A stretch of 64,000 nucleotides of DNA from positions 483,530 to 547,529 of the forward strand of contig CAJINV010000021.1 of the NCBI GenBank assembly GCA_905178155.1. The letters run 5' to 3'. Origin of the DNA: Amoebophrya sp. A120 (Eukaryota; Protista; Dinoflagellata). The notes beneath the pieces are model-generated. The model was not told the DNA's origin. It searched no databases and was given only the letters and a program-made list of their open reading frames with translations. Each line of letters opens with the position of its first letter. Position 1 is the first letter of the stretch. A program made the position numbers and the translations under genes. Below, piece by piece: positions 10,267 to 61,402 of the stretch.

Positions 10267-13200
10267 GAAGAACCGCAATTGTACTTATCTCGACGTCTTC
10301 ACGGTCAGTGGCGGTGCAAGAACATCGGCTTCATCAATTTCGTGTTGGACGACTCCGACCTGCTCGAATCGACCATGACGGGCACACAAACAACCGAGTA
10401 TACCTTGCAGACGGGCTCCTGCGGTACGATTTTTTTTTAGCTTTTCTTGGCTTTGCATAAATCGAAATTGCCATTGCGCACGACACACTACAATTCATCT
10501 CATTTTCGTCTTTATCTCAGAAGATAGCTTTGGGTGAGGCAGGGGTCGTTTCTTTATTATGAGCGCAAGTTGCAGCAAAAATGATCATGAATGGCAAAAA
10601 AATCTTCGTAACCTAGTAAGCCATAGCTTCGCGGCCTTCGCGTCGCGGCCGCAAGGAACCATTTTCAAAAAAAAAACAGGCCAAGTCGAGGAGCTTCTGC
10701 CCATTGGCGAAGACGGGGATCTTCACGGTGAGACTCTCGATTTCCTGCCCGACCTGCCGAGCACGTTCAGCCGGCAGGCCTCAATCAAGTCAGTGGTGAA
10801 TGACGGAAGCGCCAGTCCCGACGGAGGCACCAGGACGCCGCTATCGCTTTCGAAAATCTTCGACTTTGACACCACGTCGGCCTTCGGCAGCAGCAGCGCG
10901 AGCGCGTCCCCGGCCGCTTCGGGTCAGACCACCAAGTCCGAAGGTGGCGGGGATGGTGCAAATTGCACTGTTGGAGAGTTATCTGGGTCCCCGGCCTCCA
11001 GCTTGGAGCGCATGTCTTCGCAGAACAGGTCCTTTACTGGATTTGGCAATAAAACCTCCGGAGGAAACACAACTCAGGTTGTTGTGACCGAGGAAGCGGT
11101 CGCCACGCCCGCGAAAGCCACCTGGATTCCGGCGAAGGCGAATGGCGGGGGTAATGGGTCAAATTTCCAGAACAATAATCAGGATTTCTACTTGTCCTCC
11201 GCGACGGAGGTGATGGGAGACGAGAATAATTACCCCGAGCAAGATCTTCGCAATGAACCGAATAAATCCACTGCTGAAGAGGCTCTTGCGTCGTCGGCCG
11301 TAGAGGACAGCGCCCAGCACAACTGGTCGTCGACCGCGAAAAATAGTAAGGGAAATTATACCTACAACCAGAACGGGACAACTACTGGCACAACTTCGAA
11401 GAAGAAGAGCAAGAAGATGAGGGAGCTGAATTCATCTTACCAAGAAAACACAACCACGTCCTCCTGGTACAAAAAAGACCCCACGACGACGACGTCGGGT
11501 GCTGCGGGAGGTAAGCAAACGGATAAGGAGCTGCACAAAAAAGGCAGCGCAAATTGGACTTCTAACGACAACTGGCGCGCACCGGCGGCGGGTGGGGGTG
11601 TTGATCAACACAAGGAGAATACTAACGGAAAAGACAGTTCTACCACCACTTCTAAGTCCACCTACCACGACAAGGATTACTACTACAGCAATTCCTCGTC
11701 TACGAAGAAAGGATCCGGTGCAGCAGCTGCTATCGCGAAAAGCGGCAGTGCGGACAACCTCTCTTGCTCAGCCACGGAGACCGAAGCGGGCACGTCGAAA
11801 AGCAGCCGGCGGCAACGGAAAAAGGACAGTAAAGGCGCGGCCGGGGTGATTAATAATACCGCGACCACTACAACTTCTAAGGGCGGCAAGGGCGAGATGA
11901 TGAACAGCAAAGGGGACAAAACTTCTAGCAACTCGGGGGTGGTTCACAACAACAGCCAGGGCGGGAAGTGGAGCTCTACGAAGGATAAGCATGGAAATAC
12001 CACATCAACGTCTGCTGCTGGTGGAAATGATACGGTCACAACTTCCGCGACGATTCCCTCTTCCGGAACGAGTTGTGCAGCTGTGGACCACACAGTGTAC
12101 CCTGCTGTAACAACTCCCTCCGGAGTTACAACTACCACAACTGCAGGAGCTGCGCCGTCCCCAATTTCATCGTCTTTGCTCCAGCAGCCGGGCTCCAGTT
12201 CGATGTCCTCGTCTGGGGAAGAAACCGGACCGCGGAAATTACTGGGCGCCTGGGGCAAGCGACTTCAGGAAAAGGAGGAGCAGCAACTCGCGGCCGCCGC
12301 GGCCGCGTCGAAGGAGGAAGTATCGTCTTGTCCTCCGCCCTCCGAGTTGTTTAAGAAAACAATGCCTGCGGAGGAAGTTGTAGGAGAGCAAGCTGCAGTC
12401 GCAGTGCCGATCGACCACAAAGATCTCCACACAACTGCTCCTTCGCCTTCTCCCCCACAGGAGGTCATCAACACAGACCACCAACAGCAGGAACAACAAC
12501 TACAACCTGGAGATGGTCCTCCTCGTCCCTCCACGAGCGGCCAGGCGGTCTGCCACGCATTTGACAAAATGATGCAAGGTGTGAACAAGGATGCCGAGGA
12601 GGACTCTCGCCCGCGCCGGCACACGGAGGGCGGCCACAAGCCGTCGAATTGGTGGCTCAGTGGAGGCGCTTGCTCGACCGCCGAACAGAGCCCGGCCAAC
12701 TGCAGCGACACGGGAGGCTTACTCACGACCACGCGCGGTGGTCACCAGGCCGCGCAGTCGTCCAGCAGGATGAGTGTGGCTCCTTTGTCGAGCTCGGCAG
12801 CAGATGTTGACCCGAATTATCTCAGCCCCCAGGAGCGCACTATGTTGCGCGCCTCGGCACTGACGCCAACGTCCAACGGAGGGAGCACCCCGGGGTGTCC
12901 TCTGGGCCCCACACAGTCGCTGCCGAACATGGTGTCGTCGCGAGGCGGCTCTGACCTGACGTCGACCCCGCCGGGTGGAAATAAGATGAACCAGCAAAGC
13001 TCCTGCCTTGGAACATCAAATGCGACTGGGACGATTGACCAGCAGCAGGCTTCCTTTTTCAACCCGAGCAAGCAGCCACCACAGATGCCACCGGTTATGC
13101 TGAGCGGATCAACTAGTACGTGCGGCACCACAGGTAGCTCTTCCGTGCCTATCCTGTGCAAAAGTATCGTACTCGTAGTAATTGCGCTTATGCATGACAA

Positions 13201-16200
13201 ATTTCTTTCTCAAGGTGAATCAGCATTACAAATTCAATCTGTAATGCTGGGCTAATTTGTAATGCAATTTATACTAGTACGATACTTTTGCAGTTCATAG
13301 TGCCACACCCGGGACAACTGCAGCGCCGTGACATGATGAACGACGCGACGCCGTTCTCCTATCAAAGAAAAAAAGTTCGTCACGATCACTAATGCGCATT
13401 CTTGCAATACAAAGTTGTTTGTCATGCGTAAAAATGCATCACAGCCAAACTTCATTAGGGATTTCCCTAGTGTTTCTGCAATACAGGGAAAGTTTGTGAT
13501 GCTGAGAAAATTTGTAATGCAAAACCTGCAAGTTAGTGACTGTGACAAACTTTTTTTTCTCCATATCTCCGCATACGGTGACAGCACCGTCGCGGTTTCG
13601 CCGAACGAGCACAACATGAGCCCGGTAACGGAGACTTCGAGTGTTCGTGGCAGTGGCAGTACCAACAACTCTTCCAGCGCAGTCCCTGCGTTGCCAACTT
13701 CCTTGCCGCCAAGCATCACAACCAGTACTAGCACAAAGCCGCTAGGTGGGAATGCTGGCGCAGCACCCGGTGAGCAGGTGGTAACCACTTCTAATGCCCC
13801 CGACCCAGTCGCCGGTGGAGCAGAAATTGTGAACCAACAAACTACCACGACGAGCACCGGGATTAGCCACTTGAAAGCGCTGCTGGCCGCAAGTGGCCCG
13901 CAAGCGCCGCCGAGCAGCACCCGCTTGGAGCACATCCCTTTGAAGCTGCCCCCGTCACTGTCCACCGGCGGTGGAAATCTTCCGAGTTCTTCGGCATTTA
14001 ATCTTTCCAGCACAAGTTCTTTTGACTCCTCGCTGAACTCCTTCAGCAGCTTCTGCAGCGCCCAGTTCAACCTGACCACGCAAAGCATGACGCTCGAACC
14101 GAGCAAGCTGCTGGAGCAAGCCAAGTCGCAGCCATTACTGCCGGGAGTTTTGGACCACGGTTACAACAAGGCCGGAGCCAAAATTGATATCGAAGGAACT
14201 GTGCCCGCCACGACAGGGGCGGGCCAGAGTGGTACTACGATTGTTCCCGGACAAACTTCGAACAATCCGCTGCAGCCGCTCCCCTTGCCGCCGACGGGCA
14301 GCAATATTATGCAGCCGATGTTGAGTACGGCCTTCTCCGTCGGTAATGGCTCAACCTCCGGCGCAGCCGGGGCTGCATCCTCGTCGTCCATGATGAGTGC
14401 TGGAACCACCTCCTTGCTAAACACCGCTTCCTCCACTGAGTCAACGACCATGGGAACGATGAATCTACCCAACAATTTCCTCCACGGTGGAAACATCAAT
14501 ACGAACAGTTCTTGCAATAACGTCCTCAATACCCTCCTCGGAGTTACAGCGACGACGTCAAATAACGGGCTCAACCAAAACAACCCGGTCACTGGTCCTC
14601 TGCAGTCGCAGCAGCCACCGGCGCACTTGCAACCGCCACCAGGCCAGCCTTGGTTGGACGGACGCGTGAGCAAGACGCTCAACGGCCTCCCGCCGCTCGA
14701 TTTTGGAAATTTGTTTTCGCCGCAGCCGGGGCAGCCGAATATGGCCGGGAACATGAACAACAGTGGCGCAGCTGTTCTCAACAACACTGGCTCAATTTCT
14801 GGCGTTGTGCATAACGGGGCAGCTGCTCCGTTTGTGCCCGCTCCGTTGAACAATAGTACCATGATGAACAACGCGAATAGCAATAGCAACACCGGGAATG
14901 GTTCTTCTACAACCAGCTTTAATATTCGCCCGCCAAATGCGAGTCCAACGCAGAATCAGAACCAGCAGAACGTCAATCACAATCCGCCAGCGGTTCCGAT
15001 GCCACCACTACCGGGCAGCTCGTCTAACAGCAATAATTTCAACTTGAACCAGCAAAATAACTTGACGCTGAACCTGCACGGCGCTAATACTTCTAGTACT
15101 CCCGCTCCGCCTGTTGGTCCACAATTCGGCGCCAACAACTTGAACATGCAGCAAAATATTAACCTCAACCAGCAGCCGCAACGCGCAGGAGGACCGCAAT
15201 TAGCTACCGGGCCCAGCGCGACGACCTCGCTGAACACCATGCAAGCGCCACTGCAATCCGCGACCATCCCGCCTTTGCCGCTCAACAACAGCGGCGGGAA
15301 CAATGTTGGCAATGGAAATGGTGCGACAAATACGACCATGATTCCGCAACCCCCACCGCCGCCAATGCCGCTGACATCAAACAGTGGACCTGGCGCAGTG
15401 GGAGGACCACAGGGTCCTCAGGGAAGCAACACTATTAACACGACGATGATGAACTTGAACACAACTACTTCAACTACAACTAGTCTCCTGGGAAGAAGCT
15501 TTAGCTCCTCCACCAACCGCGGCATCAACACGATGGCGGCGACGTTTATTCCCGGCGCTACCGAGCACTTCCAGACCGTACCGGACGCGTCGCCGGTGAA
15601 CGGCACCAATGACATCGACGCTTTTGACGGTATAATTCTGTTTGATTTCTTTGTGTACTAGTAGTTTTTGTTTGCTTGTTATAGTTATTCAGCAAGCTAG
15701 TACTATATCGAGGAATACTAGTGTTCACCAACCTCTTATTAACCTACGGGTAAAAATAAGCAGCACCGGATGAACCAAAGCCGCCTGGCTGCTAAATGTC
15801 AATGTGAAAATCTACTCCCCAACCTCAAAGTCAAACTTCCATAAAAACAGTGATGTCCGGCGCTTCCCATTCCCCGATGGACCGCGACGTCGATTTTGAT
15901 TTGACGAAAGTGGTGGAAATGTCCAAGGTTGAAGACAGCAAGCGGAACAATAACGCCACCGCCACCCCGGCGCGCTTCCATCTGCACCAGCACGCGGTAC
16001 CGCCGAGCGCGTCGCCCAACGGGGGCACCAGCGCGACCGCGACGACGACGACGCCAGGAGGTCCGCCGACCTTCTTCCGGTCGGGCACAGGAATGAGCAG
16101 CTCGTCCAGCGGGAGTTCTGGTGCCGCGCCTGCGCCGTTTATTGGGAATAATAGCACGACGACCCTTTCCTCGTCGACCAGTGCTACTGCTACGCCGGCT

Positions 16201-21798: not shown

Positions 21799-24700
21799 AT
21801 GATGACTAGGGTGGGCCCGCGGTCCACGCGGGTCCTACCCTTGGCGTGGGCCGGCGACGGCGCTCTCAGGACAGTATTGCTCTTCGTCTTCTCTACGTCT
21901 ACCACTGTTACTGCAGACGCGGCCCTGCCAGCCCTCCCCGTCACGATCGATCCGTTGCACTTCCTCGACCATGTTGTGGTTCCTGCCGGAAAGAAACTCT
22001 TGTCCCGGAACAAAACACGACCCGCGAACAAGCGCGAGCCTGGAGATCATGATCCTCGCATCCGCACCCCCACTGCCGCGCGTGCTGCGCTCGCAGCCTT
22101 TCGTGAGAAAGAGGGTAGAACAAGAACAACGAGTGAAACACACGGTAAAAAAATCATCTCCTCAGCCACCTGGTCCTCGATCAAAAATGTCGGCAGTGCA
22201 GCAACACCAGCCCAGACGTCGCCGGACCAAGCCTGGAAAAACCGCGGTGAGATCAATGCCGCTATGGCACGGGCGCTGCAGGCTTTGGATGACAACGCCG
22301 CAGACTGTGTCAACTCGCTCCGCCGGTATCGGGAGGAAAATGTTGGAGCGGACAAGAAAACTCGCTCCAAAACGGCTCTGATTGCCGACATGAACGCGGA
22401 AATGGCCAAGTTGACGCGGGCGCGGCAAAAGGCGGAGAGGCGACTGGAAGAAACCGAGGGGTTGATGAAAAGCGAGGTCACCCGGTTTAGCACGGCGAGA
22501 AAGAAACTGACAGAGGAGCTTACCAGTAGACGACAGGAGCTGAAGGACTTCCAAAAAATGAACCAAACGATAGCGAGTCTGAAGCCGTGCGAGCAGGGAA
22601 ATGAAGCTACGACGGAAGGAGCTGCAGCTCAGTTGCAGATAGAATTCTTGCCGCAAGACAAACACCGAGTAGAAGTAGACGCAGGAATTAATACGGGGAT
22701 CCATCGGGAAAGCAGGAGGAGCGCCAGACATCATCATCAATCTGCTGCTGTCGACGACGCAGCGTTAGAACGGTACTTCAGCACTCCTTTTGATCAGCCG
22801 GCAACATTCGCAGTAGAAGGAGCTGCTGCAGCACCTGTGTCTCTTCTGGAAACCAGCCAGAGTACTATCACTGAGCACCAGAAAACCGCCCCATCAGCGC
22901 TCATGCCCGCGCTTTGCCCCTGTGACGACGGTAGTTCCACTTGCAGTGCCCCCAAGCTGACCGAGCGCTTCGTGCTGCTCTACGGCACCGGAGTTGAGGC
23001 TCTAGAGCAAGTGCACCGAGACCTGGCCGCGCTGGAAAAGAAGAAAGGGAGGCAGATGAACCGGTTAGAGAAGATGAGAAAGGACTTGGAGAGGGAAATC
23101 GTAGACCTGACGAAGGAAAAGGAGGCTACGAAAGACACATTCGAAAAAGCCACGTTGGATAAGAGGGCGGCTGGGATGGTTGCCGCGAAATGGGTATGAT
23201 TTTGATTTGTTTGCTGTTGTTCATAATTTTTTTTGAACGATTCAAATAAGAAGGTCGTGAGACTGAGATGGATTTTCTACGTACCATTCATGCACCCGAA
23301 GAAGTTATGCCGACTACATTCTTTCATCTTCTCACACTCATCACCCCCACTCGCGGCTCACAACCCCCTTTCTTCAGGCGAAGCGTTTCTCCTCGACCGC
23401 CCGAGCGTGCCGGAAAAAGATCGACTCCATTGCCCACCAAGTCCTGCCCGCCCTGAAGTTTTTCCGCTCGCACTTCCACGCCTTGATCAAGGCAAAAGCC
23501 GAGCCCATCCAAGACTGTGTCGTTTCTGGTTTCCAACCAGCCACATCCTGCGCCGCTGCGCCGGGAGATGACGGCAAAACCAAAAGCGCTACATGTTACA
23601 ACAGCACTACGACTGCAAAAGCAGGAACAACTTCCGGCAAAAACACGATCGGCACGAAACTGTGGAAGCGCAACATCCTGACCGCCGCGAGTAATATCAA
23701 ATGCAAAAGTGTCTGGGTCTGGAAGAATGCAACTTGTGATGCTGCTTTGGATGTCTAAAAAATCTGTGTTGCATGAGCAGCAAAAGGATTCATCTAATTT
23801 TTGCTCCGCGGAGAGGGCATTTGTCATGCGGAATAGGCATCAAGAATCCAATCCCTCAAAAAACCTGTGACGCTAGGGCATGCATCACAGACATCATGGC
23901 TCATGCAAACCGTGCATGACAAGTCTCAGAATCTTCCAGACCCAGACACTTTCACTTTTGCATTTGATAAGTAACTTCGGTGTGCAGTGTGGGCCGACGG
24001 AGAAAGCCGTTTCCTGTGACCTTCCCCAGTGCGCGAGGCCCTGCAAGGTCGACGGTTGGTCGTCGTGGTCGAGTTGCGAGGCCGGGTGCAGAGCATCGGT
24101 CGGCACGCCCGGAATGCAGCAGCGGACAAGAAAGTCGCTGGAAGTAGAAGATGAAGAAGCTGGTGAAACAAGAACGTCTTCGTGTCTCCAACAACCTCTC
24201 ACGGAAACCCGCCCGTGTAAGTGCGAAGATGTAGCACTTGGAAAAAAATTCTCCAACGTTGCAAACCCTTGCGCGGTTTCCCCGTGGTCCCGTTGGGGAC
24301 GGTGCTCGAAACGGTGCGTCGCCGCGGCGGCTTCGACTGATGCCGAGAAATTTGGAACCCGCTCACGGACGAGGAGATTGCTACGACCTGAAAATTGCAA
24401 AGACGCAGTCGCCGAAACGCAGTCGCTGGAACCAGTCCTGACTGAAATGGAGGCGTGCACAGCCGCAGCTGCTACATCTTTCGCTGCAGAAGTCACGGAG
24501 CCAATAGAACATCAACCAGACGCGATGCAAATGGTGGATGGAATTTCCCTGGTTTCATCCTCTACAAAAGATCAGACCTGTGCGGCCGATTTACGTTGCG
24601 GCGGCGTCCAGGACCTGCTGGTCGCCGTGCCAAGGCTGGGAAGGAGCGAAGTACGCTTCCTCTCTGAATTGTTCAACCGGTTAGATGACAAGCTGTACGG

Positions 24701-27700
24701 AAATGCCGCGGTCAGAGTCGGGGTCTTGTTTTATGGAAGCGAACTCGTGAGTCAGGCTAGGGAAGTTGTAGACGCCTCTTCTTCTACCTCGGCCGCCGGA
24801 GCTGCTGAAGCGTCTCCTACTACGGGAACGGAACCAGAAACAGAGAGTGAGGATGGAGAATTGAAATCCGCTGTGAAGCTCAGCCCACCAAAAATTGTGG
24901 CTGCGCTCGGCGCCGCCAGCGTGAATGGGACTTTGCAAATGCTGCTCAAAGAGAGTCAGCGGCACCCTCCTTCAACGTCCCAAGACCCCTTCCTTCCAAA
25001 CACCGCGGCGGCGGCGGACGTTGCGGCTTTGGAGTTTGCACAAAACGGCCGCGCCAACGCGCAGCAGACCGTTTTGTTCCTCGTACCTGACTGCGAGAAA
25101 GCCCCCGCCATCTTTCGAAAGCGAGCGACCGAAGCATTGTGGAGGCTGAAGAAGAAACTGCGCGTGCAAGTCGTGGAATTACAACAGGACACGAGTAGTG
25201 GTACAACAACCGGTATCAGCACGCGAGCAAAGAGTTCTTCCTGTCCGGCCAATGAGCAACTGTTCAAAAGTTGGGTTTCGGAACCTGTCGCGGAAAACTT
25301 TGTTTCTATAGTTGCTCCGACTTCCTCGGTTGCGACGAGAAGTCAAGAATCAGTACCGAGTTCCGGCACCATGGCCCTCCTCCTCACGAGCAGCTCCACC
25401 TGTCCCCGCATCTACAGCCCGGTGCAGGAGAAAAAGATCGCCGGTGCCGTCGGTTTTCAGCTGCTTCGCGAACAAGCGGACTGCCGCGAAGCGTTGGGGG
25501 GAAACACGACGGTTCTCGGCGTGTACGAAAGTCGCGTGGCCTGTGCCAAGGCAGTCGTGGCTGTGACGCGGGACGAGAAAGCGAAATTTTCCATGGAAAC
25601 GAAGAAGTTCTGGGTGGCGCCATCAGGAGCTGCGTCAAGAAGTACAACAACTACTTCTCCTGATGTAGAAACGGCCACACAAGGTGAGGGCATTTCTGAA
25701 AATGCTGCCAGCGGTGGGGCAGGGCCGTTTGCAACCCGGGAGCTTGCTACGAGATGTGTGTTGCATCAAGAAGGAGTCACGGACAGCAAAGGAAGTGGTG
25801 CTGCAATAGCATCTGCACCATCTGCAGCTTCTCCGGTGGATTCTTTGAAGTGCAACCGGAAGTCGAGCCCCGATGAACATGATGAGCAAAACTACGAAGA
25901 TCAGGCTTCTTCATCTTCATCTTCCGGGACGACTACAACAAAGATGAACCTGTTCAGCATTGTAAAGAACGAGACGGTGTTTGGCGCCCTGGCGTTTGAC
26001 AAAACTTCCGAGTCACCGTTAAATGCCAACGCCGGAAAGGTTTCGCTGGCGACAGCGGAACAGATTCGTGCGGTCGTCGCTCGCAATAAGAAGTTGGCGG
26101 CAGGAAGAAAAAGTGAAAAGACAGAGGAGGAGAGGTTGCAGGAGAAGGCGTTGCGGGCGGCGAAAGAAAAATTGGAACAGCAAAAGGAAGCCGAAAAATT
26201 GGAACAGCGAAAAGCCTTGGCTGCGGAGAAAGCAAGGCAGAAGGAAGGCGAAGGCGCGAAGCGCGATGCCGCGGCGAAGGCTGAAGCGCTGAAGCGAGAG
26301 CAGGCGGAACGGGCAAAGCAGGAAGCCCTTGCGAAGAAAACGATTGCGGAACGGGTTGAGGCCGAAATGAAGAAAGAGAAAGCCGCGAAAGCAGAGCAAG
26401 CGGCCAAAAAGGCCAGGGAAAAAGCAGCTGCGGAAAAGGAGGCGCAGAAGGAAAAAGAAGCGCAAAAAGCGAAGGAGGCGAAGGAAGCAGAGAGAGCAAA
26501 GGAGGCACGAGAAAAGGCGGAAGCGGCGCAAAGGGCGAAGGAAAAGGAGGCGAGAGAGGCTAAGGAGCGGGCAGACGCAGAGGAAAAGCGAGCTAAGCAG
26601 AAGTTGGTAGCAGCGGAAAAAGCAAAGGAGGCACAGAAGGCAAAAGAAACGGAAGAGAAAGCCGACAAGGCTCGGGCCGCGGAAGTAGCCAAGGCGAAAG
26701 AGGCGGAGAAGGCCAAGGCAATTGCGCAAAAGGCAAAGGAAAAAGAAGCAGCTAAAGCTCGCGCTGCGCAAAAGGCAAAGGAAGCTGCCGATGAAAAAGC
26801 AAAACAAGCTGCAAAAGCCCGGGATCATGAAGCCGAAAAGGCAAAACAGGCCGAGAAAGCCAAAGCCGATGCGCAGAAGGCAAAGGAGGCAGCAGCAAAG
26901 GCGGCAGAAGCAAAGAAGGCTAGAGAACAAGCGGAAGAAGCGGAAGCGGCAAAAGAAGAAGCAGCCGCAGCTGCGCTCAAGGCCAAAGAAGAGCTGGAGG
27001 CAAAGCGAGAAAAGGAAAAACAGGAGGCCGCCGCGAAACAAGAACAGGCCGATCAGGAGCGAGAGAAAGCTGCTGATGCGGAGGCCGCAAAAGAAGTTGC
27101 GGACGCGGACGCAGAGGAGAACGCAGCCGCGGCTGCGGAAGAGGCGGCGGAGAAGAAGTTGGCGGATGAAGCGCTGAAAAAAGCCCGGGAGGCCGAAGCC
27201 GAAGCAGAGAAGTTGAAGCAGCAGGAAAGGAAAACCAAGGCGGATGCGGCGAAGGAAAAGCAGGACCGCTTGAATATGGCGCTCTCACACGTTAATACCT
27301 TGATCGCTGGTGCGTGATGTCGCATTGGTTTAAGATGCTGCAAGAATCACAAAGGCAAAAGCCGGGGTCTTGTTGCGCACCAGCTTTTTGATGCAATACA
27401 TTCATACAAATCCGGCAAAGATTTTGATTTCCAACCTATAAATGTAGCGCACAGTCAGCAAGACTGATTCATGGATGCGAGTCAGGGTCAGCTTGATCAT
27501 GCTCCCGATGTTGGTTACCAGAGGTCGTCGTCATTCTTTTTATCCTGCATGACAAAATAAAATCAAGGAGAAACATATCAACATGTTGTACCAGCGAACA
27601 ACGTAATATTAACGTCTGAAAAACGCCATATTAAGGGACCAGCAGGCCGCGAAAGACCACGAGAAAAAAGCAGTTTCCCGCGCCGTGGAGGCGGAGCGCG

Positions 27701-46164: not shown

Positions 46165-46304
46165 GTTGTTGCCTTGAAGAATGTAAACGTAGAGTGACAA
46201 ACTGAAGCTGTTTACTTCCTATATGAAATTGTTAACCGCGGCTTTCATTGTGCCCTTGGTAGAAGTTCACGTCCTGCTTCTCCATCTCGGGCTTACTACG
46301 ACAG

Positions 46305-47159: not shown

Positions 47160-50100
47160 ATTATGCCTTGTAAGGGCGAGGGAATTTTGCACGCTCGTAT
47201 CGTCCCGTTCTCCGCGTATCTTTCAATTTCGGCTTGCACTCCCCACACATATGCATTGCAAATATGTCACCAGGGTCATCTGGAAATAAGATTGAATGGC
47301 GTCGAGCATGCAAATGACTTTTTTGCATGAGGACAGAAACAGGAATTTGGACAGCTCAGGTTCACTCGCAACAACAAAAAATCTGGAAAAAAGATTGGAG
47401 CTTCAACTTGTGATGCCCTCTCCCAGTCACGCAGAGATCTGGAATCAATGCATGAGTCGCAAAAGCTGGCCACTTTGTTTATTTCTATTTGGCGACAGTG
47501 CGAGATGAGGAATCGTTCTCATTGCCATTTTTAGACCATAAATGGACATTGCAAAGCTGTTGCAGAACTTGTGATGCTGGACTCTGCGTTCATCGTCCAG
47601 ACCTACTGGACCACACAAACTGCGTGACAATAGGATTTTTCCCGAACCAGACATACACATACACGGTCAACACGTATTTGCACTGCATAAAGCACCCCAC
47701 ACTCCCACGTTCCATGTCCCGCTACCCGCATCGGGCCCCAGATCGACTTCTACGCCCCCCACAACATCGTCTCGCTTCCGGACCTTGGTTCCGTTGTAGC
47801 GCTTCTGCGTTTCACGGTTTTCCTATGGAGGAAGCGAAGCGTCAGCGATCGTTCAAAGCCGACAAAGTGAATACGAATAGCGATTTCTTATTCATATTCT
47901 TGTGATGAAGATGCGTATAATTATTTACAAGAAACTACCGATGCCTTTCTTTGCTTTCTTCGACCGTCCATTTCTAATCGTTGCACGACAAATCTGCGGT
48001 TTGTTCCGACAGAAAGGGCGCGAGCTGCTCTGGAGGTGCTCATGCGCTTCAGAAAGAAACAGGTGTCGCCCAATCCGCAGCGCACGCAGGCACAGGACTA
48101 CAAGTACAATCGACCTCACGACTTGCTTCGCTTGCAATATCGATCATTTTTTTTGTTTTTGTATGGCATATTTATTCAGGCAAAAATAAAATTAAAAGCA
48201 CAATAAACTCATTTTCACTCTGCCGAAGGTTCTACACGACGTTGACACAGAGGTATGAGAGTGCACAACTCCCCCTCGTCCCCTCCATTTGTCATGCAAA
48301 ATAGCAAATCCAGTTCCTTTCCAGCCGAGCCTTTTCCCTTTAGCGCTGCTTGTATGACGGGTTCAGGAAGCCGAAACACTAGTACTATCGGTCGCAAAAT
48401 TCCCATGCAAACACTGTATTTTTGCCAGCACGACTTGTGCTCCTGCTGCTTATGCTTTTCAAATGAGGGGGAGGGGGGGTTGTGCACTGTCATAAGACAC
48501 TCCGATCATACACCTGGATGCCCGGGGGAAAAAAAATCCGTCTTAATGTCCTCGTAAAAAAAAGCGAAGCACGTAGACAAACACCAATTGTCGAACGTAA
48601 CTGGGTATGCGTTGCAAAGGTCGTATCGTACTAATAGTAGAAATTGCAATAGTTGTACAAATCTTCCCACAAAAGCAAAAGGTATAAAGTAAAATGGAAT
48701 TCGTACATGCAGAGTTCTTTTCTTTGCATAACAAACACAACAGGATCAGGCATGGGCAACACAAAAAATAAAACAAAAAGATGAAGATCTTCTGTCATGC
48801 AAGACAGGCACGCATAGTCATACAAGTATAAGATACTTTTGCACAGGATCATAATGGCACGCGAACATAGTATCGTTCGATGTCGTGTGGGAGCAGGGGA
48901 TGGCGTTGTTGACAAGAATAGGCGGTGAAATTATGCTGGGCGATGTCGCAGACCATTCGCGTTTCCCATTTTTGGTCCCCGGATTCTTGCATTTTCTTCT
49001 CTATTTCCTGTGTGTAGTGCAGGAGAAATGGGTCAGAATTCGAGGCGCTGTCCCATCGCCCACGCTGCCCGGTTCTGGTGCCGTCTAAGTGCTATGCATT
49101 GCAAATATGTCTGGGTCTGGAAGATTGCTGGTGCAAGTTGTCCTGCTAAATCTGAATCATGCAAAAATCTGTGTCTCATGAGTAGCAAAAGCTGGTGTCC
49201 GCTTTTGACCAAGTTGAGAGGGAGTTGTTTCTCATGCAGGATAGCCACGATAGCGACCTCACAGAATCTGTCATGCTGGGTCCCGCATTCGGCATTCCAG
49301 ACCTCATGGGTCACGTCATGGAAAAACTGTATGACAAGTCGCGCACCCTTCCAGACCCAGACATATTTGCATTTGATAAGTGCACCGCTTGCAGTATAGC
49401 GGTAAAATTGGTATTCGTATTCAGAAATCGCAAATTTTCTTTGCCCCTCCAAGGGCGGCCGGCGACCCAGCTGGATGTGGTGCGGCAGCGACAGGAAGAG
49501 CACTAGACAGGTAAGTTGGCGGAGTTCGGCGACCCTGCTATTTTTAGATGGCATTTTTGGAATGAGTGAATGGCTATCTATTAATGTAGCTAGCTTGTCG
49601 TGGTGTTAGATAGTTCAAAATGTGACTTGCGCTTGTAGATGTGATTCCGCATATCCTGGCGTGTTGCTGCTTTTTCCGGAGCGACGTAGCTGCGCTAGGC
49701 ACTGCGTGTTGGGCACCACTATGGTGCCCAAGGTGGACACCGTGGCGAACCTGCTGCTGGGCCGAGCCGGAGGACCCGTTCTGACTATCTTAGATAGTGA
49801 CCGAACATCTCAAGCGCTATCTATATTTGAACTATCTAGCACCACGACAAGCTTAGCTATTTCATTCGCATTCGCATTCGTCATCAAATAACTTCACTTT
49901 CGAAAACACAGTAAAAAAGGTCGGCGCAGACGACGGTGAAGACGGGGGCGGACGACCTTGGGCGGCAGGTGGAGGAGATTGTTCTGCTGGGCTGGGAGGG
50001 GCCGGAAAATTTTACGAATATTGAATACGAATACCAATTTTCCCGTTATATGCAGGTCCCGAGCGGCGTCCACGGGCCCGAGGCCAAAGCTACCAAGTGC

Positions 50101-52248
50101 AAACGTGTCTGGGTCTAGAAGACTGCCAGGTTTGTCATGCAGATTCTGTATGATCCATGACGTCGCCCCCTGTGTTGCATGATCTAGCATCACAGATTTT
50201 TCGAGGGCTTCCTAATGCGTATCCCGCAAGAAAAATGCCCTCTCCGCGTAGCACAAACTGGACTCCGTCCTGTTACAGCTACTGGTCATGCAATACAGAT
50301 TTTCATTTTTTTGGAATCCAAAGACAGCACTACAAGTTCTGACCTTCCAGACCCCGACATTTTTGCAAGGCGTAAAAACCGGGAATCGTCGACTTGTCGC
50401 TGCTATGACTTGCAAAACTATCGCACTGGGACTGGCAGCAGTGCTGCCAGTGCGGTAGCAAAAACCGCATTGCAAATTAGTTCAAACTCAGCATGACAAA
50501 TGAAATTGTTATGCTGGTTTAATGTACAGTTATTGTTTGTTTGTTCATATTGGACACACGGAATCCGGGTGAAGGTTTTCTTCTCTCGTGTAATGTACAG
50601 TTATTATTATTGGGTACATTCGAAAGTAGGACATCTGTAGTCATGCATGATTTTTTTTTTTCATCTGTCATGCATGAACATGATTGGGATAAAATTTTCA
50701 GTACGAGAACGATGATGCTTTTGTAGTGCATATCTGATAAAATCTGCGCTACTGCGCAAGGACCGATCTACAGCAGCAAGTCTTTCTCTTACCCCAGCCT
50801 GCCGTCGTTCTTCCAGATATCGCGGGTTGGGGCTGAACAGAGAAACCAGCCAGTCTCTCCACGAGACAGGCTGTATGTCTTCCGGGCTGTTGCGTGAGCT
50901 CAGTAACCGAGCGATGATGTTCGGATGCCCGTCTTCCTCCACGCGTGCTTCTATCGCTACCGGTGAATTCCAGGGTACGTAAGAAGGGGTAAAGTTGATC
51001 GCTGGGTAAAAAGGTATGCCAAGTAAACGCAAGCTGCGAGGAGAACACTTGCAGGCAAGGAGATCTCCGACTACTGGTCTGGCCTCGAGTACGTTTCTGG
51101 AGCACCAAAAACCCTTGTCGAAGCACCACTGCCAGTTGCCACGATATGTAGAAAACCGGTTCGCTTGATGTTCTCCACGCGGGGTTTATCCAGAAAAAAA
51201 ACCCCATCCCCATCCAATTTGTGATGCAAAACATGCAGAAGCTGCAGGGTTTGAAATGCAAAAAATGGATGGGGATGGGTGTTTTTTCCTGGATAGGGTT
51301 CGCTTCCTATTTTTTGCCTCCACGGCGCCGGCATTTTTATTTTTCTCGATTGTTGATGCGGGAGGTCCTCGTGGCTTCTTGTTATCACCGATCATATTAT
51401 CGGTCGCGTCCTCCGCTTGCACGAAGGTAGCACGTGCCCCCACTTCGACAGACATAGTACCAGCCGCGGTTCTTTCCGCGTTGTTCTCGACCGTGTCCTC
51501 CTCGCGTGGTTCATATGAAAGCCTCAGGTTGGAAATTAATACTCAAAGTGGGGTAATGCAAAAAAGCGACTCCAGTCGAAGCAGCATTTCTAGCCGGCGC
51601 ATGACAAAGGTCCCGGGCACTCAAAACGTGTCTGCCATGCTAGGTAGGTAAAGGGGTGCCTTTCTCTCGTGCTAATCAGCGGCCCAATTCTGAACCCGTA
51701 GAAGCACAACGAATAGTCGGCCTCCATTGCGTTCTCTGCAATACAGTCTTTTTGGTGTCGCATTTCATCAGGCACCATCACAAATTATTTTCACTTTGAG
51801 AATTTCCATTCTGAGGCTCTCATAGTCCATCTTCGTGACTTCTGGTTCTGTCGGCCGCAACATCGCTGTCACCATTTTGATCATTTTTGCCGCGTAACCG
51901 AGCCCCAACATCTTCGGGGAGAAACAGGCCAGCGATCGAGATGCAGGTGTGCAAATGCGTGGTCAACGCGATGTATCAAATGTAAAAATGTCTGGGTCTG
52001 GAAGAATTCATGTTTGTCATGCTTGTCTGGCATGACTCTTAAATCTGTCATGCACGTTACCCAAGAGCTCCGTTTTTCTGTGATGCAGAAGCGCTGTTTG
52101 TCATGCAGAATAGGCAACACCTAGGAGCTCAGAAACTTGTCATGCTGAGCCAGCATTTGTAGCCTCATCGACCATGAGACGCCACCCAGCATCACAAGTT
52201 TCCAGACCCAGACATTTTTACATTTGATACGATGGGGGGCGACTTCAT
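47160..52248 (-). CDS. Hypothetical protein, possible signal peptide; at least 10 introners (3' end unresolved)
   Basis: From ATG 52248 (MKSPPIALTTHLHTCISIAGLFLPEDVGARLRG) the frame stays open across 8 consecutive introner excisions to ~48585. A likely 71-nt GT-AG intron (48514-48584) and further exons follow. No family recognised. Confidence 0.65.
47250..47689. mobile_element. Introner, family A (degenerate, with insertions)
   Basis: TATGCATTGCAAATA..TATTTGCACTGCATA; TSD ACACA/AAGCA; flanks join in an open frame (WNVGVWG.WGVQAEIEK). Confidence 0.7.
48254..48494. mobile_element. Introner, family C
   Basis: TATGAGAGTGCACAAC..GTTGTGCACTGTCATA; TSD AGAGG/AGACA. Confidence 0.8.
48606..48853. 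mobile_element. Introner, family B (degenerate)
   Basis: TAT..ATA with TGCAAAGG..GTATCGTACT / GATACTTTTGCA; TSD CTGGG/ATGGC; 253 nt removed. Confidence 0.7.
49093..49378. mobile_element. Introner, family A
   Basis: TSD AGTGC; 291 nt removed. Confidence 0.92.
49395..50050. mobile_element. Large introner, family I (~55-bp TIR plus nested internal inverted repeat)
   Basis: TATAGCGGTAAAATTGGTATTCGTATTCA.. / ..TGAATACGAATACCAATTTTCCCGTTATA; TSD TGCAG; 661 nt removed. Confidence 0.9.
50091..50374. mobile_element. Introner, family A with TAC..GTA termini
   Basis: TSD AAAGC/AAAAC; 289 nt removed gives IPGF|GLGPVD. Confidence 0.87.
50404..50732. mobile_element. Introner, family B (degenerate)
   Basis: TATGACTTGCAAAACTATCGCACT..GCTTTTGTAGTGCATA; TSD GCTGC/TCTGA; 334 nt removed. 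Confidence 0.7.
51187..51295. mobile_element. Smallest introner (109 bp), H-related
   Basis: TATCCAG.AAAAAA..CCCATCCCCATCCA TIR; TSD GGGTT; 114 nt removed. Confidence 0.92.
51514..51824. mobile_element. Introner, family G (TATGA.AGCCTCAG..TGGAAATT TIR)
   Basis: TSD GTTCA/GTCCA; 316 nt removed. Confidence 0.88.
51974..52229. mobile_element. Introner, family A
   Basis: Perfect TIR TATCAAATGTAAAAATGTCTGGGTCTGGAA; TSD CGATG; 261 nt removed. Confidence 0.93.
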
Positions 52249-52966: not shown

Positions 52967-53295
52967 CTCTCGACAAATAAGTATGTTCAAAGGAAAACGA
53001 AAACTGCAGTAGAAGCGGGTGCTGCAGAGATACGGAGTGTGAAAGTGAATGATAATAAATAATTCGATAAATTAGATGAACGGCAACAAAGTACTAACAT
53101 TAACGGAGCGAGCGTACACAAAGACATAGGAAAACGATAGTGAATCCTGTTTGGGGATTTGGTCAGCACTAAATCTTCGCTCTTAGGTTCTTGTGCCTTC
53201 ATTCACTGGTCCTCATACGCTGCAACGCAGATTCCTGAAACGGAAAAAGTTGGAATCGGATGCGAGCCTGCGGACGTCGACGTGGATTCGACGTT

Positions 53296-56200
53296 TCAGC
53301 AGTTGTGACGCTTCAGGACCTTCATGGCATCTGGCCACTGCAGTCCTGGGTCACATCCAGTCTGCTCTTTGTGCTGCCCGACGAAGATCGGCGGCCCGCC
53401 GCCCCCTGCTTTCCGGACCTGGATCCACTTGCCGTCGCACTTCGTGGTGCACTTTTCGGCGAACTTCACTCGTGGGTTGCTGTGGTCAACGAGGCGCACC
53501 TTGATCAGTGAAAAATTGCGGGGGCGCATCAGCGCAAGTATCCTCCACATGCAGAGCCTTCGGTTACCAGTCCCCGCGAGGAAGAGAGTTTTCGTGCCCG
53601 CTGGAGGATGACAGCCGCCACCTCCTGGTGTGGGGGCGCTCTCGTCGTCAGTTGTTGCGTTCTTCGTGGGTGCAGTTGCCCAGCACACGTCGAGGCAGTC
53701 CAAGGTCGCTGGCGTGTTTTGAGCGACTGCTTGCAGCTGTTCCGCCAGCGAGTCCAGGATGCTCTTGTTTGTCTGCCGTACCGCGCGACCAGAACTCGTG
53801 TCCACGTAGTCCCGGAATTCGGATTTGATCGTGTCATGCGTAAAGTGGACGTCGAGAGGAGAGACCCAGCAGATTGTGCCGAGTTTTGCGGTCTGTGACG
53901 GCAAGCGTGCATACACGTCTGCACCGGTCACCAGGTACCGCGGCACCGTCGTTGCGGAGTCACAGGGCTGGGCACAGACGGGGCAGGTCATGTGCTTCGT
54001 GAGAGGATCGCCTTTCTTCGCTGCGTTTGCTCTTTTCACGGCCAGGTGACCGGTGAAGCACGAGACACAGTGGTTCCACGATTTGCAGGTACAGGTTCGC
54101 TTGCCTTCTAGGATCGGGATGGCTGGAAGAAAGTTCCCGGCGTCAAGCAGCTCGCCGTATGGAATCGCGCAAATCACGCAGCACTCCTCGGCCGTCACCG
54201 TCTGGCAATGGTGAGCCGGCATCTCGTATTGCAGCACCTCGACCAGGCACACCTCGCACGTCAGTTTTGTGAACGGACAGCTCTGTTGGTGCACCGCACG
54301 CTCGTGGAGGGGGCCGCGCCATTTGCAGCAGGCCACGTTCTTTGCATTGGTTTGGCCGCACGAAACTTCTCGAAACTCACACGTCTCCTGCTGGTGCCTC
54401 TCCATCGCAACTGCCTTCACGCGGGCACCGCACTTGCCGCAGGTCTTCATAGCGTAGGCACAGGTGGTCTGCTGATGGTTGTTCAGCTCGCTGGCAGGCA
54501 TGAACTCGCCGCAATCTTGACACATCACCTCACGATTTTCGCATTTTTTCCGATGCCGCTTCAATTTGTCCTTGTTTTGCTGGTCCTCATTGCAGTGCGG
54601 GCATACGAACGCACGCACAGTAGACGTGCTCGCAGCCCCGCAGGTATTCGCAGCTTCCGCTGCGCCCGCTTTGATGCCCTCGAGGCGCGCTAATTCTGCA
54701 CGAAGCAGCGGGATGTCCGTTTCCAGGACACGCCGGAGCTTGGACGTGCCCGGCTCGGCGCTGTTCATGTTCGCCTCGTCGCGCAGAGACAAAGTTTCAA
54801 CGACGGGCTATGAATTGCGAAAGTTGTATCGCACTCGTATACGTTGCAGCCATGCAGATGACAAATACGTTTCCCAACCAGCATTACAAATTCAAATTCC
54901 ACTTTTGTGTTATAGCAAAATTATTTGTAATGCAATAACCCATAGCTACTAGTCGTAGTCCTAGTGCGATACTTTAACTTTTGCAATGCATACGGACTTC
55001 GCTGCCGCAATTTCGACGTTGTCGTCTCCGTCCATTTCGTCCGGTGAAGGGTCGTCCGCATTCGACGCCGCAAGGAGAATGCATGGCGTTCTCAAACGTT
55101 ACATCCATAGCTGCTACACGCTTTGTCATGGAAAATTCCGATCACAATCGACACGATCAAGCTGCTTCGCATAACTAAGTCTCGAATGGCCAAACAGACT
55201 GGGAATCTGTGCCAAATGTGTCACGCAAGACGTCGCGCAAGGCCACGGTCGCTTCCTCACTTTTCCCATTCTTCCATCACAAATTTATGTAACAGTTGAG
55301 AGTGTAACGTTTGAGAATGCCATAGAATGGCGCTCCCGTCGAATTCTTGGAGAAGAGTTTGGATGTTTTCGAGACAAGCGTCCAGACCCTTCTTGTTGTT
55401 CTCCGATACTTTGCAACCCACGTGCAGCGTGTCGCGCATGCGATGTACCTGAGAAAGCCACTCGGAGGAAAGTTGGTTTTTGCGAATTTCGATCGCCTCG
55501 TGCCGCTGGCTCTTCTCCAGTGCGGATTTCGTGTTTTCGACCTGTTCGACCGTCATCTCAGTGCGTAGGCCTGCGTCAAGATCTTCACCGAACTCCTCCC
55601 AGGGATTCCGAACCTCACGGTCGTCAGGAATCAGGTCGGTTTGGTAGTGTGCGAAGTAGGGCACGTCGATGATGTCTTCGTACCGCAAACCGAGCCAGCC
55701 CTTGTGCGCAAGCGCGGGGCGGTCTTCCGGGTTTTCGTTCACCAGGAAGGGATCGCAGCTACCCGTGTCCTTGCCAAGGCCTCTCATGTGGTCTGAAACG
55801 TACAGCGCAAACTGCCCGTTCTCCAGCCGAAGGTCTCGCTTCCACGCCCGGCCGTAGAACGGAATCGCTCGCATGTTTGTGGTGCAGCAGACAACGCTTT
55901 CCTCGAAAGGCGCTGCGTGATTTCGATTTGGTTGATGCGTCCCGCGAGCGCCTCGTCGACCGGCTTGCGACTTTGGTTGCGCCGATTGTCCACGGTGCAC
56001 ATTTTTCTTCTTGTAGCGAATCAGGATTGTTTTTTTCGAGAGCACTCGCTGGAGTTCGGCCAAAGGAGGCACCTTTGGAGGAGGGGCGCCGGCGTCACCT
56101 AGCTCTGATAGGGCGCCGGGACCACGAAACGCAGCGCTGCTGTGGGTGTCAAGTTCCAGCCGATTCATCCACAGCCACGGTTTCATCGGCGGATTTGTGG

Positions 56201-59200: not shown

Positions 59201-61402
59201 AGTCGGAATCGCTATCGAAGCCAGCGGTATCACCGTCATTTACTTCCTCGCACGAATTAAATGAGTCAGAGTCATCTTCTGAGTCATCAGTCTCCGTAGT
59301 CACGTATGCTCCTCCGGCGGCCCGGTCGTGGCGATGCCTTTGTCGACGTGGTGAACGAAAAACATGACGCCGCTGTCTGCCGCTCGTCCCTCCTCGTCCC
59401 AGTAGAAAATTGGTCACAACATCGGTTTCATTCGAGCGTGCCGGAACAAAGGTCTGGGTGAACTCCATTGTCTTCAGCGTGACAGTGTTGGCAGCGGTGA
59501 CTGTGACAAGACAACCGGATTGCTTGGTGTTGTTGCTTGATGCGGATGTAGCGCACGGAGCCGGTTTTGCTGCGGCGTCAAGAAAAACGACGGACTGCGA
59601 GTTGCTTTTGCCAAATTGAAGACCAGTAACACGCGGCCACCGCGCAACTCCGCATCCCCGGTGTGGCACCTTTGTGGGAGCCCTTCTAGTTTGCGTCCAT
59701 GCTGTACCGTTCGGCTGTACCTGTAGCTCGAACAAGAGCAACTCATCCTTAACTATGCAGAAAAGCTGGCTGGCGTCGTCGGAGTTCGGGTTAAACCCAA
59801 ACCAACACGAGCTCCCACACAGTGGTGGGGCTGATCGGTAGTTAGTGCCAAAAGTTGAAATGTTGTGCGGCCCTTCAAGAACCACTGATGTTGTGTTTGG
59901 AGAGTTCTGCGGCCCCTGCCCGTCAGACGGCAAGATTGGCAGCGCGTCGAGCTCGATCGTGCGAATGCCAAATCCCGATGGTGCCACTGCAACACGTCTC
60001 CCGTTCGCAGACGGATCCAAATGTACCGCCCCACCAATGAGGCCAACACCCATTATGTCATTAACTGTTCCTATTAGCTTCGGCGACGTACCTGAAAAAT
60101 CTTCCTGTGGCATGCAAGAATAGATTGTATAGGGTTCATTCTTCTTTCAGATCAACTTTAAGTTCAACATCACTTCTCGGCAAAAAAAGATCAGCTAGTA
60201 CCTTTAAAATATCCGGTAAAAAAATTTTCGTGGTCCGAGGAGTCTTTTTTATTTCCGAAAGCAATTCGTACGAGCTGTCGTCCTGACGGAAATTCATAAA
60301 AAACCGGAAGTTCGAGTCTGTGTAGCATGGCGAGTCGGCGACGGGCAAGCCGGGCCTCTTGTTCAGAGAACGGCATGCGACCACCCTTCGGTCTCGTGGC
60401 ACCCTCGTCTTCTGTCGTGTCTATCAAACTCTGCAGCTCCAGGGGACAGACTGCTTTGCAGGCGATCGCGATGCGCGCCTCCGTCCACTCCCGTCCAATA
60501 GTACTGAACCAGTCAACCTTAACCGTGTTGCGTGCGCGGTCGCTGTCGGAAGCAACCACTGGTGAGTACGCAGGAAGTTCACTTTGGCCGTTCAACGTCC
60601 GTCGTATCCACAGTAAATTTCCCGTACATGACGGGACATACAAACGCGGTTTCCGCGTTATATACTTTCTTTCAGTGCTTGTGCTATTCAACAGCATGAC
60701 AAGTGGCTTGATCGAAGTTGTTGAAATTTGTGATGCATTTTGTTGTACGTGGTGTGGAGGATGTACAGAAAATTATTTGTATTGCATACGCCGCGTCCAT
60801 CCTTCGTCGATGCGGTCCTGGAGTTCCCGTCGAATCCGCCAGCCGAACATGCCCGCCATGTTCTGCGGCGAATCCTCGCCATAGAGAGCAAGGGCCCGTA
60901 AAAGGTGATGGAGCTGCAGCTCGAGGTGTGGTCCTCCGTCCTCAGGACCAGCATCCAGTGGATAGCCGCAGCTTTTCGCAAGCTTTGCCCATTTGGGAAT
61001 GGCGCCGAGGGCACTGAGGTGTTTCACGTGCGGACAGCCACGTGGCAAGCCTCGGGGATCCACCTCGCCGCCGCTCCACTCTAGCATCGGCAGCGACTGC
61101 ACAAACGCACCGTAGTCAGCGGGCTGGATCAGGAAGTTTGCGCCAACTTGACCGCCCTGGAAGCCACCTGGTCCACGCGTTCCGTCACCGCGGGCGCCGC
61201 GCAGGAGGGATTGGTGTTCCAAACACTGCTCGCGATGGCCACGAAGCGCGTGTTCCGAGCGGCACTCGTTCTTGCAGTACACCGCCAAACCACAGCCGTC
61301 GCAGACCACTGGGGCCGCTACCGCGTTCTTCGAACAGAAGAAACACTCCACATACGGTAGCGGCGCAGAATACAACAGTGACAAATCCGGATCGACCGCC
61401 AT
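53296..61402 (-). CDS. Giant multidomain protein (~2470 aa): MYND zinc finger, TPR/ST7-like region, coiled coil, C2H2/TRAF-type zinc fingers, RING, C-terminal ParB-like domain
   Basis: Four ORFs and a short exon join in frame via introners 60659, 55082 and 54809 and canonical intron 60092-60201. Motifs: CFFC..CDGC..YCKNECRSEH..HREQC; ALAEEALNVYPDCVGAY, PWGHPDNRPFLR, LLCLNPSDNQGIR; HQQTTCAY..CGKC; CVIC..C.C..HCVSC..CPVC; DVHFTHDTI..GNRRL. Confidence 0.75.
54809..54992. mobile_element. Introner, family B
   Basis: TAT..ATA; TSD CGGGC/CGGAC; 189 nt removed gives AAKSV|VETLSLRDE. Confidence 0.85.
55082..55324. mobile_element. Introner, family D
   Basis: ATGGCGTTCTCAAACGTTACA / TGTAACGTTTGAGAATGCCAT; TSD GAATG; 248 nt removed, same length as 42609-42851. 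Confidence 0.9.
60659..60788. mobile_element. Degenerate introner
   Basis: TAT..ATA ends, internal GCATGACAA and TTGTGATGC, weak TIR. Removing 135 or 138 nt (flanking repeat CCGCGT) keeps the frame. Confidence 0.65.

Follow-up and report, generated by a model that had tools for sequence, protein, structure and literature searches.

Introners of the window

Thirty short elements interrupt genes in a 64,000-nucleotide stretch of the dinoflagellate Amoebophrya sp. A120 (contig CAJINV010000021.1, positions 483,530 to 547,529), which we call the window and in which all coordinates below are counted from the first letter. These introners lie between 13150 and 60788 and are 109-656 bp long in our curated list. 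Twenty-nine of them came from a repeat scan, which looked for inverted repeats bordered by direct repeats, together with a self-comparison of the window, and the thirtieth (39713-39993) came from a joint in RNA. The host exons encode the Pfam domains AKR, Alba, TSP1, zf-TRAF and zf-MYND, and the AKR gene reads as a single frame of 666 codons once 12 elements and 2 canonical introns are removed.

Every element is flanked by 5-bp direct repeats, which are perfect at 17 elements, match at four of five positions at 8, and match at three of five at 5. Mean flank identity was 0.88 at a repeat length of 5, compared with 0.27-0.31 at lengths 2-4 and 6-9, and a perfect 6-bp repeat was found at 0/30 elements. 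In transcript sense, 29/30 elements start with TAT and 25/30 end with ATA (both in 25/30), and A occupies positions 11, 12 and 13 of the inverted repeat in 21, 23 and 25 of the 30. A strict scan returned 17 elements, whereas 15 block-wise dinucleotide shuffles of the window gave 0.13 on average; a looser scan returned 26 against a shuffle mean of 1.07, with 5 of the 26 being AT-rich false hits at 34.3-35.0 kb. Across all six registers, a GT-AG pair was available in 1/30 elements, with one more for GC/GA-AG and one more for AT-AC. Deleting the element plus 5 nt left at least 60 open codons on both sides at 24/30 junctions, compared with 8-9/30 for other lengths modulo 3. Deletion of element+2 or element+8 scored likewise at 24/30, so the frame sets the deletion length only modulo 3.

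The initial annotation, made from the letters alone, had described 30 elements of 109-656 bp with 17 perfect and 13 imperfect 5-bp repeats, TAT and ATA termini, frame-restoring excision and, in most elements, no GT-AG pair; our curated set agrees with this description. Its estimate of about 9 terminal inverted repeat (TIR) families was too low. The window elements cluster into 20 groups or, when clustered with 378 copies from outside the window (described below), into 10 multi-member families and 10 singletons, with 15 multi-member clusters among all 408 elements. Outside copies were matched by 23/30 window elements. The elements are short, carry TIRs and a target-site duplication (TSD), lack a transposase frame and occur in high copy, as do miniature inverted-repeat transposable elements (MITEs); DNA depth on some of them is thousands-fold the single-copy depth, a figure that is not a copy number.

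On the plus strand, the repeat scan found introners at 13150-13299 (150 bp, TAT..ATA) and 13360-13565 (206 bp), both with perfect TSDs and both restoring the frame when removed. The introner at 23695-23969 (275 bp, perfect TSD), in a gene with a TSP1 domain by Pfam, belongs to the largest family by clustering. Most of the remaining elements lie on the minus strand. From the repeat scan come 47250-47689 (440 bp, TSD differing at positions 3 and 4), where RNA depth was nil in run X3; 49093-49378 (286 bp, largest family, perfect TSD, frame restored); 49395-50050 (656 bp, perfect TSD), which holds a nested inverted-repeat element at 49592-49853; 51514-51824 (311 bp, TSD differing at position 3); 51974-52229 (256 bp, perfect 30-bp TIR and TSD), whose best outside copy is 93% identical; and 60605-60788 (184 bp, TSD differing at position 3), in a MYND-finger gene by Pfam. 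In-silico removal and TSD comparison placed 48606-48853 (248 bp) and 50404-50732 (329 bp), each with a TSD differing at positions 1 and 5, and the self-comparison found 50091-50374 (284 bp, TAC..GTA ends, TSD differing at position 2). At 48254-48494 (241 bp, TSD matching at 3/5, repeat scan) 16 codons are open at the junction, and host strand and coding status are uncertain.

RNA lacks the element plus five nucleotides

Contigs from runs X4, X5 and X6 skipped the element plus 5 nt at 7/7 elements lying wholly inside 27100-41300. The same contigs skipped two GT-AG introns on the minus strand, one of 3632 nt in the AKR gene at 35476-39107 (joint 35475>39108 in three runs), which contains a GC-rich repeated insert, and one of 116 nt at 40043-40158 (three runs); the contigs are therefore RNA. 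Two of the seven elements are on the plus strand: 27275-27630 (356 bp, TSD differing at positions 3 and 5), where joint 27272>27634 skips 361 nt in one contig of one run, and 30967-31261 (295 bp, ATG end), in the Alba gene, where the joint skips 300 nt in two runs and homologues align over the junction. The other five are on the minus strand: 39204-39497 (294 bp, TSD differing at position 1; 299 nt skipped in four runs), 39713-39993 (281 bp, TSD differing at position 3; 286 nt, three runs), 40242-40502 (261 bp, largest family, perfect TSD; 266 nt, three runs), 40555-40845 (291 bp, the family of 40242 in reverse orientation, ACA end; 296 nt) and 40956-41219 (264 bp, TSD differing at position 4; joint 40950>41220 skips 269 nt, three runs). 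Below, elements are named by their first coordinate.

Contig arithmetic gave the same result at eight further elements, all on the minus strand. In record 10 (run X3), the 690 letters upstream of 41882 equal 688 exon letters, after five element+5 removals, plus 2 letters to the next branch. The five are 41888-42055 (168 bp, interrupting AKR before DYVDLYLLH, where the frame agrees), 42334-42544 (211 bp), 42609-42851 (243 bp), 42898-43133 (236 bp, after DTAEFYG) and 43394-43673 (280 bp), the last four with perfect TSDs. The branch at 43739-44030 (292 bp, TSD differing at position 3) is set by a retained-path contig covering 43706-44060. In record 15, 84 letters are left between 54809 and 55082, as expected from element+5 removal at 54809-54992 (184 bp, TSD differing at position 2) and 55082-55324 (243 bp, ATG end, perfect TSD). 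At two more minus-strand elements from the repeat scan, both with perfect TSDs, the RNA is only consistent with removal: a contig stops at 41418, beside 41268-41417 (150 bp, ACA end), and a piece stops at 51181, beside 51187-51295 (109 bp, a near-complete hairpin), where the record continues. RNA thus lacks the element plus 5 nt, with the original frame back, at 15/30 elements (7 joints and 8 by contig arithmetic), the outcome that the initial annotation had proposed looking for.

In the Alba gene (30652-31392), splicing removes 300 nt that hold no in-frame stop, and retention would give a protein of 246 instead of 146 residues. A public protein from another assembly, P0001, translates through the same insertion; before the junction it is identical at 106/106 residues, and within the element its sequence has diverged.

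The elements could instead have been removed from DNA, or the genes could be dead. Different samples underlie the DNA runs and the RNA runs, and the RNA label was guessed, which leaves room for this explanation, but the contigs that skip GT-AG introns, with zero depth in several bins, speak against it, as does the Alba insertion shared with P0001. Single-copy DNA contigs run unbroken across the whole of elements 42898, 43739 and 49395, and retained and spliced paths are both present in the RNA runs (39680-40023 and 43706-44060). Given these DNA contigs and the coexistence of retained and spliced RNA, we regard DNA-level excision or pseudogene status as very improbable.

Retention is frequent at 39713-39993, for which contig depth was 207 and 190 for the retained path against 151 and 173 for the spliced path in one sample, and 14.5 against 67 in another. 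Retention there is possibly stage-dependent, and would shift the AKR frame.

A probable common cut inside the duplication

Because the last bases of an element's 5′ exon can come from either copy of a perfect repeat, only mismatched repeats locate the cut. We define k as the number of upstream-repeat bases retained in the 5′ exon. Among the six mismatched repeats with RNA evidence, the allowed values are 3 or 4 at 27275, 4 or 5 at 40956, 3, 4 or 5 at 39713 and 43739, 2-6 at 54809, and 1-6 at 39204. These sets intersect at k=4 only, so the mismatched repeats served to place the cut, as the initial annotation had suggested. Probably, then, the elements share one cut, in which the fifth base of the upstream repeat (the N before TAT) opens the intron, which closes 4 nt beyond ATA. 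The intron would run from 27274 to 27634 at element 27275 and from 40952 to 41220 at 40956; element 39204 is the sole one to read GT-AG at k=4. Five of the six sites exclude the mirror register, k=1, whose acceptors would be A-N and so resemble AG. Splicing removes both 40242 and 40555, which belong to the same family and lie in opposite orientations.

If the cut instead slid within the duplication from element to element, k=4 would be a coincidence of a few sites. Two sites alone set the bounds, and published work leans this way: Farhat et al. (2021) term the sites variable relative to the hairpin (PMC7789003), and the annotation of family 1 in Gozashti et al. (2025) has 892/1322 N-T donors and 864/1322 A-N acceptors, a mixture of k=4 and its mirror (PMC12130899). 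An aligner cannot choose within perfect duplications, so the published mixture probably stems from the alignment. Each of the six informative sites is compatible with k=4, five of them exclude k=1, and the one-ended selection of TA described below agrees with a fixed donor; a sliding cut is accordingly quite improbable. Two other approaches gave no information on the register: A/T drift in the mismatched repeats, and in-frame stops at 7 further mismatched sites without RNA, which did not discriminate between registers.

TA is constrained at one end of the intron

We next turn to copies outside the window. A search of metagenome contigs with a 23-letter terminal motif found at least 178 stretches, of which those listed share one assembly prefix; viral contigs contained none. 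The counts that follow come from the 170 listed loci, chosen by the motif of one family, so family sizes among them are biased. In a scan of these loci that did not ask for TAT, 219/228 inverted-repeat pairs with perfect 5-bp repeats have TAT..ATA ends. A stricter scan, which recovers 19/30 window elements, gave 378 unique elements at 163 loci, 310 of them with perfect repeats. A codon model assigned a host strand to 271/378, and the other 107 were dropped; on the window, which was its training set as well, the model was right for 25 elements and wrong for 1, with 4 no-calls.

Among the 271 strand-called elements, we counted one broken terminal TA at the transcript 5′ end and 13 at the 3′ end (p=0.002), and the single 5′ break sits in an AT-rich, probably false element. 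The counts are 0 and 10 among the 221 of these with perfect TSDs, and 0 and 4 in the window. Selection for TA at +2/+3 is thus shown statistically at the transcript 5′ end only. Under k=4, U at +2 and a purine at +3 occur in 30/30 window elements and 270/271 outside elements. Position +1 is unconstrained, with G in 89/271 (80 expected) and in 7/30 in the window, which is the background rate and not that of a U2-type intron. At the 3′ end each of the 16 dinucleotides is represented, and GT-AG is possible in 19/271; AG ends 4/30 window elements and 27/271 outside ones (19 expected, p=0.075), again unlike U2-type introns. An apparent excess of 3′ AG (23 against 10 for its mirror) was dropped when including flank composition brought it to this p value. 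In the shared cut, likely only TA at intron bases 2-3 is required.

For a transposase, and for hairpin pairing, the two ends are alike. A constraint on one of them only therefore points to recognition of T+2 and A+3 by an RNA machine. Eight of the 13 changes at the 3′ end (ACA, ATC, AGA) abolish pairing, and the wobble-tolerant change of A+3 to G was seen 0 times; pairing alone is therefore not the explanation for the polarity.

This polarity bears on a removal independent of the spliceosome, in which an endonuclease would cut at distances measured from the foot of the terminal hairpin, 1 nt at the 5′ arm and 4 nt at the 3′ arm, before a ligase joined the exons, as is suspected for the nonconventional introns of euglenids. 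Such an enzyme would need neither G+1 nor AG and would remove both orientations; folding predicts a mean of 18 pairs between the terminal 30-mers, U1 small nuclear RNA (snRNA) is reported as not found in A120 (PMC7789003), and euglenid introns are reported to leave as circles, not lariats (PMC11282704). A stem-reading enzyme should, on the other hand, treat both arms alike, in contrast to the 1 and 13 breaks of TA; element 41888 is removed with 1 predicted terminal pair, and 41268 has 5; and the conserved letters coincide with spliceosomal +2/+3. We consider this explanation unlikely, though the strongest of the alternatives.

An internal 8-mer and a putative mobilising enzyme

Most elements share a further motif. 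TGT(C/G)ATGC occurs 52 times in 26/30 window elements, against 1.7 expected from shuffles and 6 in the remaining 56 kb of the window, and 947 times in 337/378 outside elements. Its position peaks 30-50 bp inside the ends, facing inward. From its placement, the motif has the look of a sub-terminal binding site common to the families, and as such would be the best support for one mobiliser.

The 8-mer might alternatively serve removal from RNA, if a specialised small nuclear ribonucleoprotein (snRNP) or protein, with a divergent U1 or a guide RNA, read N-UAU together with the motif as a second spliceosome class. The abundance of the motif would suit this, as would the lack of a detected canonical U1 in A120 (PMC7789003). 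Against it, the 8-mer has no transcript strand preference and lies inward of the ends, as expected for a DNA-level transposase site; 4/30 elements lack an exact copy, including the spliced 39713, 54809 and 55082; and no Rfam family was found in 34000-56000. A second spliceosome class is improbable on these grounds. A captured snRNA inside 51514 was considered and rejected, as the segment has no Rfam match and is ordinary family sequence. In the same element, 16 raw reads of run X9 cover 51712-51768 and carry a putative adapter just before 51712, as at a defined 5′ end of an RNA in a 51514-family element; the segment has no Rfam match. The sequence preceding 51712 in these reads is one that we take to be a template-switch adapter.

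A transposase frame was found neither in the long outside copies (170 loci, about 0.6 Mb) nor in the 3632-nt intron. Only 3 outside copies in the 170 loci exceed 500 bp, and the longest, of 1104 bp, has no Pfam match, so the long-copy check proposed in the initial annotation yielded no transposase. This longest copy (L026:505-1608) is a member of the 51514 end-family with a GC-rich, internally repeated insert. The single transposase class proposed at the outset stays a suggestion. Judged by sequence, TA..TA ends with a 5-bp duplication would place the elements among those moved by integrase-related DDE enzymes, with a full match to none. IS3EU/GingerRoot has TA..TA termini as in the window but usually a 6-bp TSD instead of 5 (PMC10045372). 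IS481EU has TNT..AYA termini and TSDs of about 4, 15 or 25 bp (PMC10045372, PMC2836005). Ginger2/Tdd has TSDs of 4-5 bp (5 bp in TDD-4/5), as here, but TGTNR ends unlike TAT (PMC2836005); among our elements, TGT is a rare change at one end only. All three groups are described as using integrase-related DDE enzymes (PMC10045372, PMC2836005).

Proposed removal by a relaxed major spliceosome

These observations can be joined into one scheme. Insertion duplicates 5 bp, as the sequence shows, and the enzyme, acting in trans, is somewhat more likely than otherwise an integrase-fold DDE transposase. Since both ends begin with TAT, read inward, each orientation offers a donor. The RNA lacks the element plus 5 nt, probably through a cut at k=4. 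The 3′ cut would lack a sequence signal, its place being set by how far it lies from the terminal hairpin, or from a branch site within it, and U2, U5 and U6 would catalyse the reaction without checking G+1 or AG.

We thus favour, with a probability of about 0.6, removal by the major spliceosome, whose donor would be cut down to U+2/A+3 and whose acceptor would be measured by the hairpin. This estimate combines the U+2/A+3 donor with published facts. A120 is reported to have near-complete spliceosomal proteins and U2, U4, U5 and U6, with snRNP27 undetected (PMC7789003). Loss of SNRNP27K accompanies +4U donors, and +2U is part of the catalytic network (review, PMC11732430). Fritillaria is reported to rely on its U2 spliceosome for the removal of introners that are not GT-AG (bioRxiv 2025.08.15.670264). 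In the window, the RNA-confirmed canonical donors are GTACAA and GTAATT, and A+3 occurs in 5/6 predicted donors, which were picked among the top candidates per break. The single non-canonical excision pathway of the initial annotation keeps its one fixed cut, and the emphasis would shift to a relaxed major spliceosome.

Several points weigh against a spliceosomal removal at a fixed register. The features that define U2 introns, G+1 and AG, are absent; U1 snRNA is reported as not found in A120 (PMC7789003); no branch site was identified, and the canonical acceptors have no clear A-7/T-6 pattern (A-7 is altered in 3/271 outside elements, which is uninformative on the branch site). Predicted pairing of the three terminal bases, from which a hairpin would be measured, averages only 0.42-0.50. 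As to the cut, the bound k<5 comes from one site (27275) in one contig of one run and the bound of at least 4 from one site (40956) in three runs, and registers drawn independently at random would have some k in common 13% of the time and k=4 alone 1.5% of the time. As to the polarity of TA, strand calls by frame length only give 2 and 9 breaks (p=0.065), and elements on which both methods agree give 1 and 8 (p=0.039); the third base lacks polarity (5 vs 3), G at +5 has no 5′ preference (93 vs 108), and the orientation of the 8-mer in transcripts is balanced (369 vs 337). Finally, 13/30 elements have no RNA evidence (9 without a visible joint and 4 outside RNA-aligned stretches), the runs that inform on splicing consist of assembled contigs whose RNA label was guessed, and the raw-read RNA runs X9 and X10 match repeats only, not exons.

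A wider form of the spliceosomal reading is tentative, and we rate it just short of even. It holds that the major spliceosome handles tens of thousands of introns without either terminal dinucleotide; that the donor, N-U-A(-U), comes from either transposon end and the acceptor is any four bases past the inverted repeat; that insertion of a TA-ended element of the integrase type with a 5-bp TSD is thereby scarless; and that the sister strain A25 falls under the same +2U/+3A rule. On this last point, the nine predominant non-canonical ends reported for A120 all have T second, and the nine for A25 start with TT and have TTA repeats (PMC7789003). The published ends of both strains fit a shared +2T/+3A rule, though perhaps in part through aligner preference.

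Relation to described introners

The phenomenon itself was already published, as the initial annotation had said, and the window set matches the A120 introners of Farhat et al. (PMC7789003). That paper describes inverted repeats starting with TAT and a 5-bp example (section 11 and the legend of Fig. S19), with direct repeats of 3-5 nt and borders whose position with respect to the hairpin is given as variable or unknown. The two sets agree in their TAT inverted repeats, an A-run about ten bases in, short repeats at the junctions, lengths of about 240 nt, membership in many multi-copy families, lack of a transposase and RNA-supported removal without GT-AG. Unlike in the description given there, the repeat in the window is 5 nt throughout with the cut probably fixed inside it, U+2/A+3 alone is selected, and the 8-mer links families.

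In Gozashti et al. (PMC12130899), A120 family 38 is labelled 'Ginger; 5-bp TSD, TA/TA Termini' and manual inspection gave family 19 a TSD of 5. In 56 of the 58 A120 rows, most families are 'Unknown', automated TSDs are 2-6 (one of 11) and calls of carrying or co-opting are inconsistent; no common register is stated in this part of the work, in contrast to the k=4 favoured here.

The introners of Fritillaria borealis are likewise reported as non-autonomous TIR elements forming introns without GT-AG, with U2-spliceosomal removal as a feature of that species. Their dominant ends are AG-AC and AG-AT, U1 is kept and 45-55% of termini could pair in a G-G-like manner, whereas in the window +1 and the last two bases can be any letter (bioRxiv 2025.08.15.670264; PMC11282704). 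Nonconventional introns of euglenids resemble our elements in their terminal stem, TSD-like repeats, non-canonical ends and proposed MITE origin (PMC11282704). They differ in having a stem motif at +4..+6/-8..-6, pyrimidine-purine junctions and circular products; in the window the repeat runs from +2 to -5, and TSD positions 4 and 5 have no pyrimidine-purine bias.

A literature search that left aside subscription journals and the pictured Figures S19-S25 of PMC7789003 found no paper stating a fixed cut, a TA constraint at the 5′ end only or the internal 8-mer. The fixed cut and the two-letter donor therefore appear new, and the TAT start, the 5-bp example and the 'Ginger, TA/TA' label were already published. 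Of the interpretation first offered for this locus, one grammar across unrelated families and removal of the element plus 5 nt from RNA held up, and its newness was overstated.

Other features of the window

A loose end at 39102 had been considered as a 3.6-kb element with a 5-bp duplication, and was rejected because the RNA joint shows the canonical GT-AG intron 35476-39107. The GC-rich insert of this intron has no long frame or Pfam match, and diverged copies elsewhere are transcribed. The last bases of the intron include the introner 8-mer. At 38987-39030, 413 raw reads of X9 and 301 of X10 match about 40 bases and then continue in other sequence, as if from an abundant RNA with one short stretch in common with the intron.

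Nested inverted-repeat elements inside introners, at 49592-49853 and 27298-27603, have 5-bp direct repeats, no TAT ends and ambiguous borders; an element nested inside an introner needs no donor of its own. An AT-rich spacer at 34200-35300 separates a plus-strand gene block from a minus-strand block, which meet tail to tail, and positions 1-1040 hold short units in a degenerate array with several open frames. Two intergenic pairs (44485-44796/46331-46631 and 52725-52891/63507-63685) are 76-77% identical, lack terminal repeats and flank single-exon frames.

Implications for Amoebophrya introns

In the 2021 account, Amoebophrya introners had no discernible splice signature and their borders were unknown; a fixed cut and a two-letter donor turn this into a testable rule, and the cut predicts the position at which a lariat would form. 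Gene models can be corrected, as a public protein reads through one such element, and the search for the missing mobiliser narrows to TA-ended enzymes of the integrase type. If the major spliceosome acts on these introns, it would ligate exons exactly without the G+1/AG pairing usually held to be essential, finding the 3′ site by geometry. This would also explain how the elements could colonise exons in both orientations and leave the proteins unchanged.

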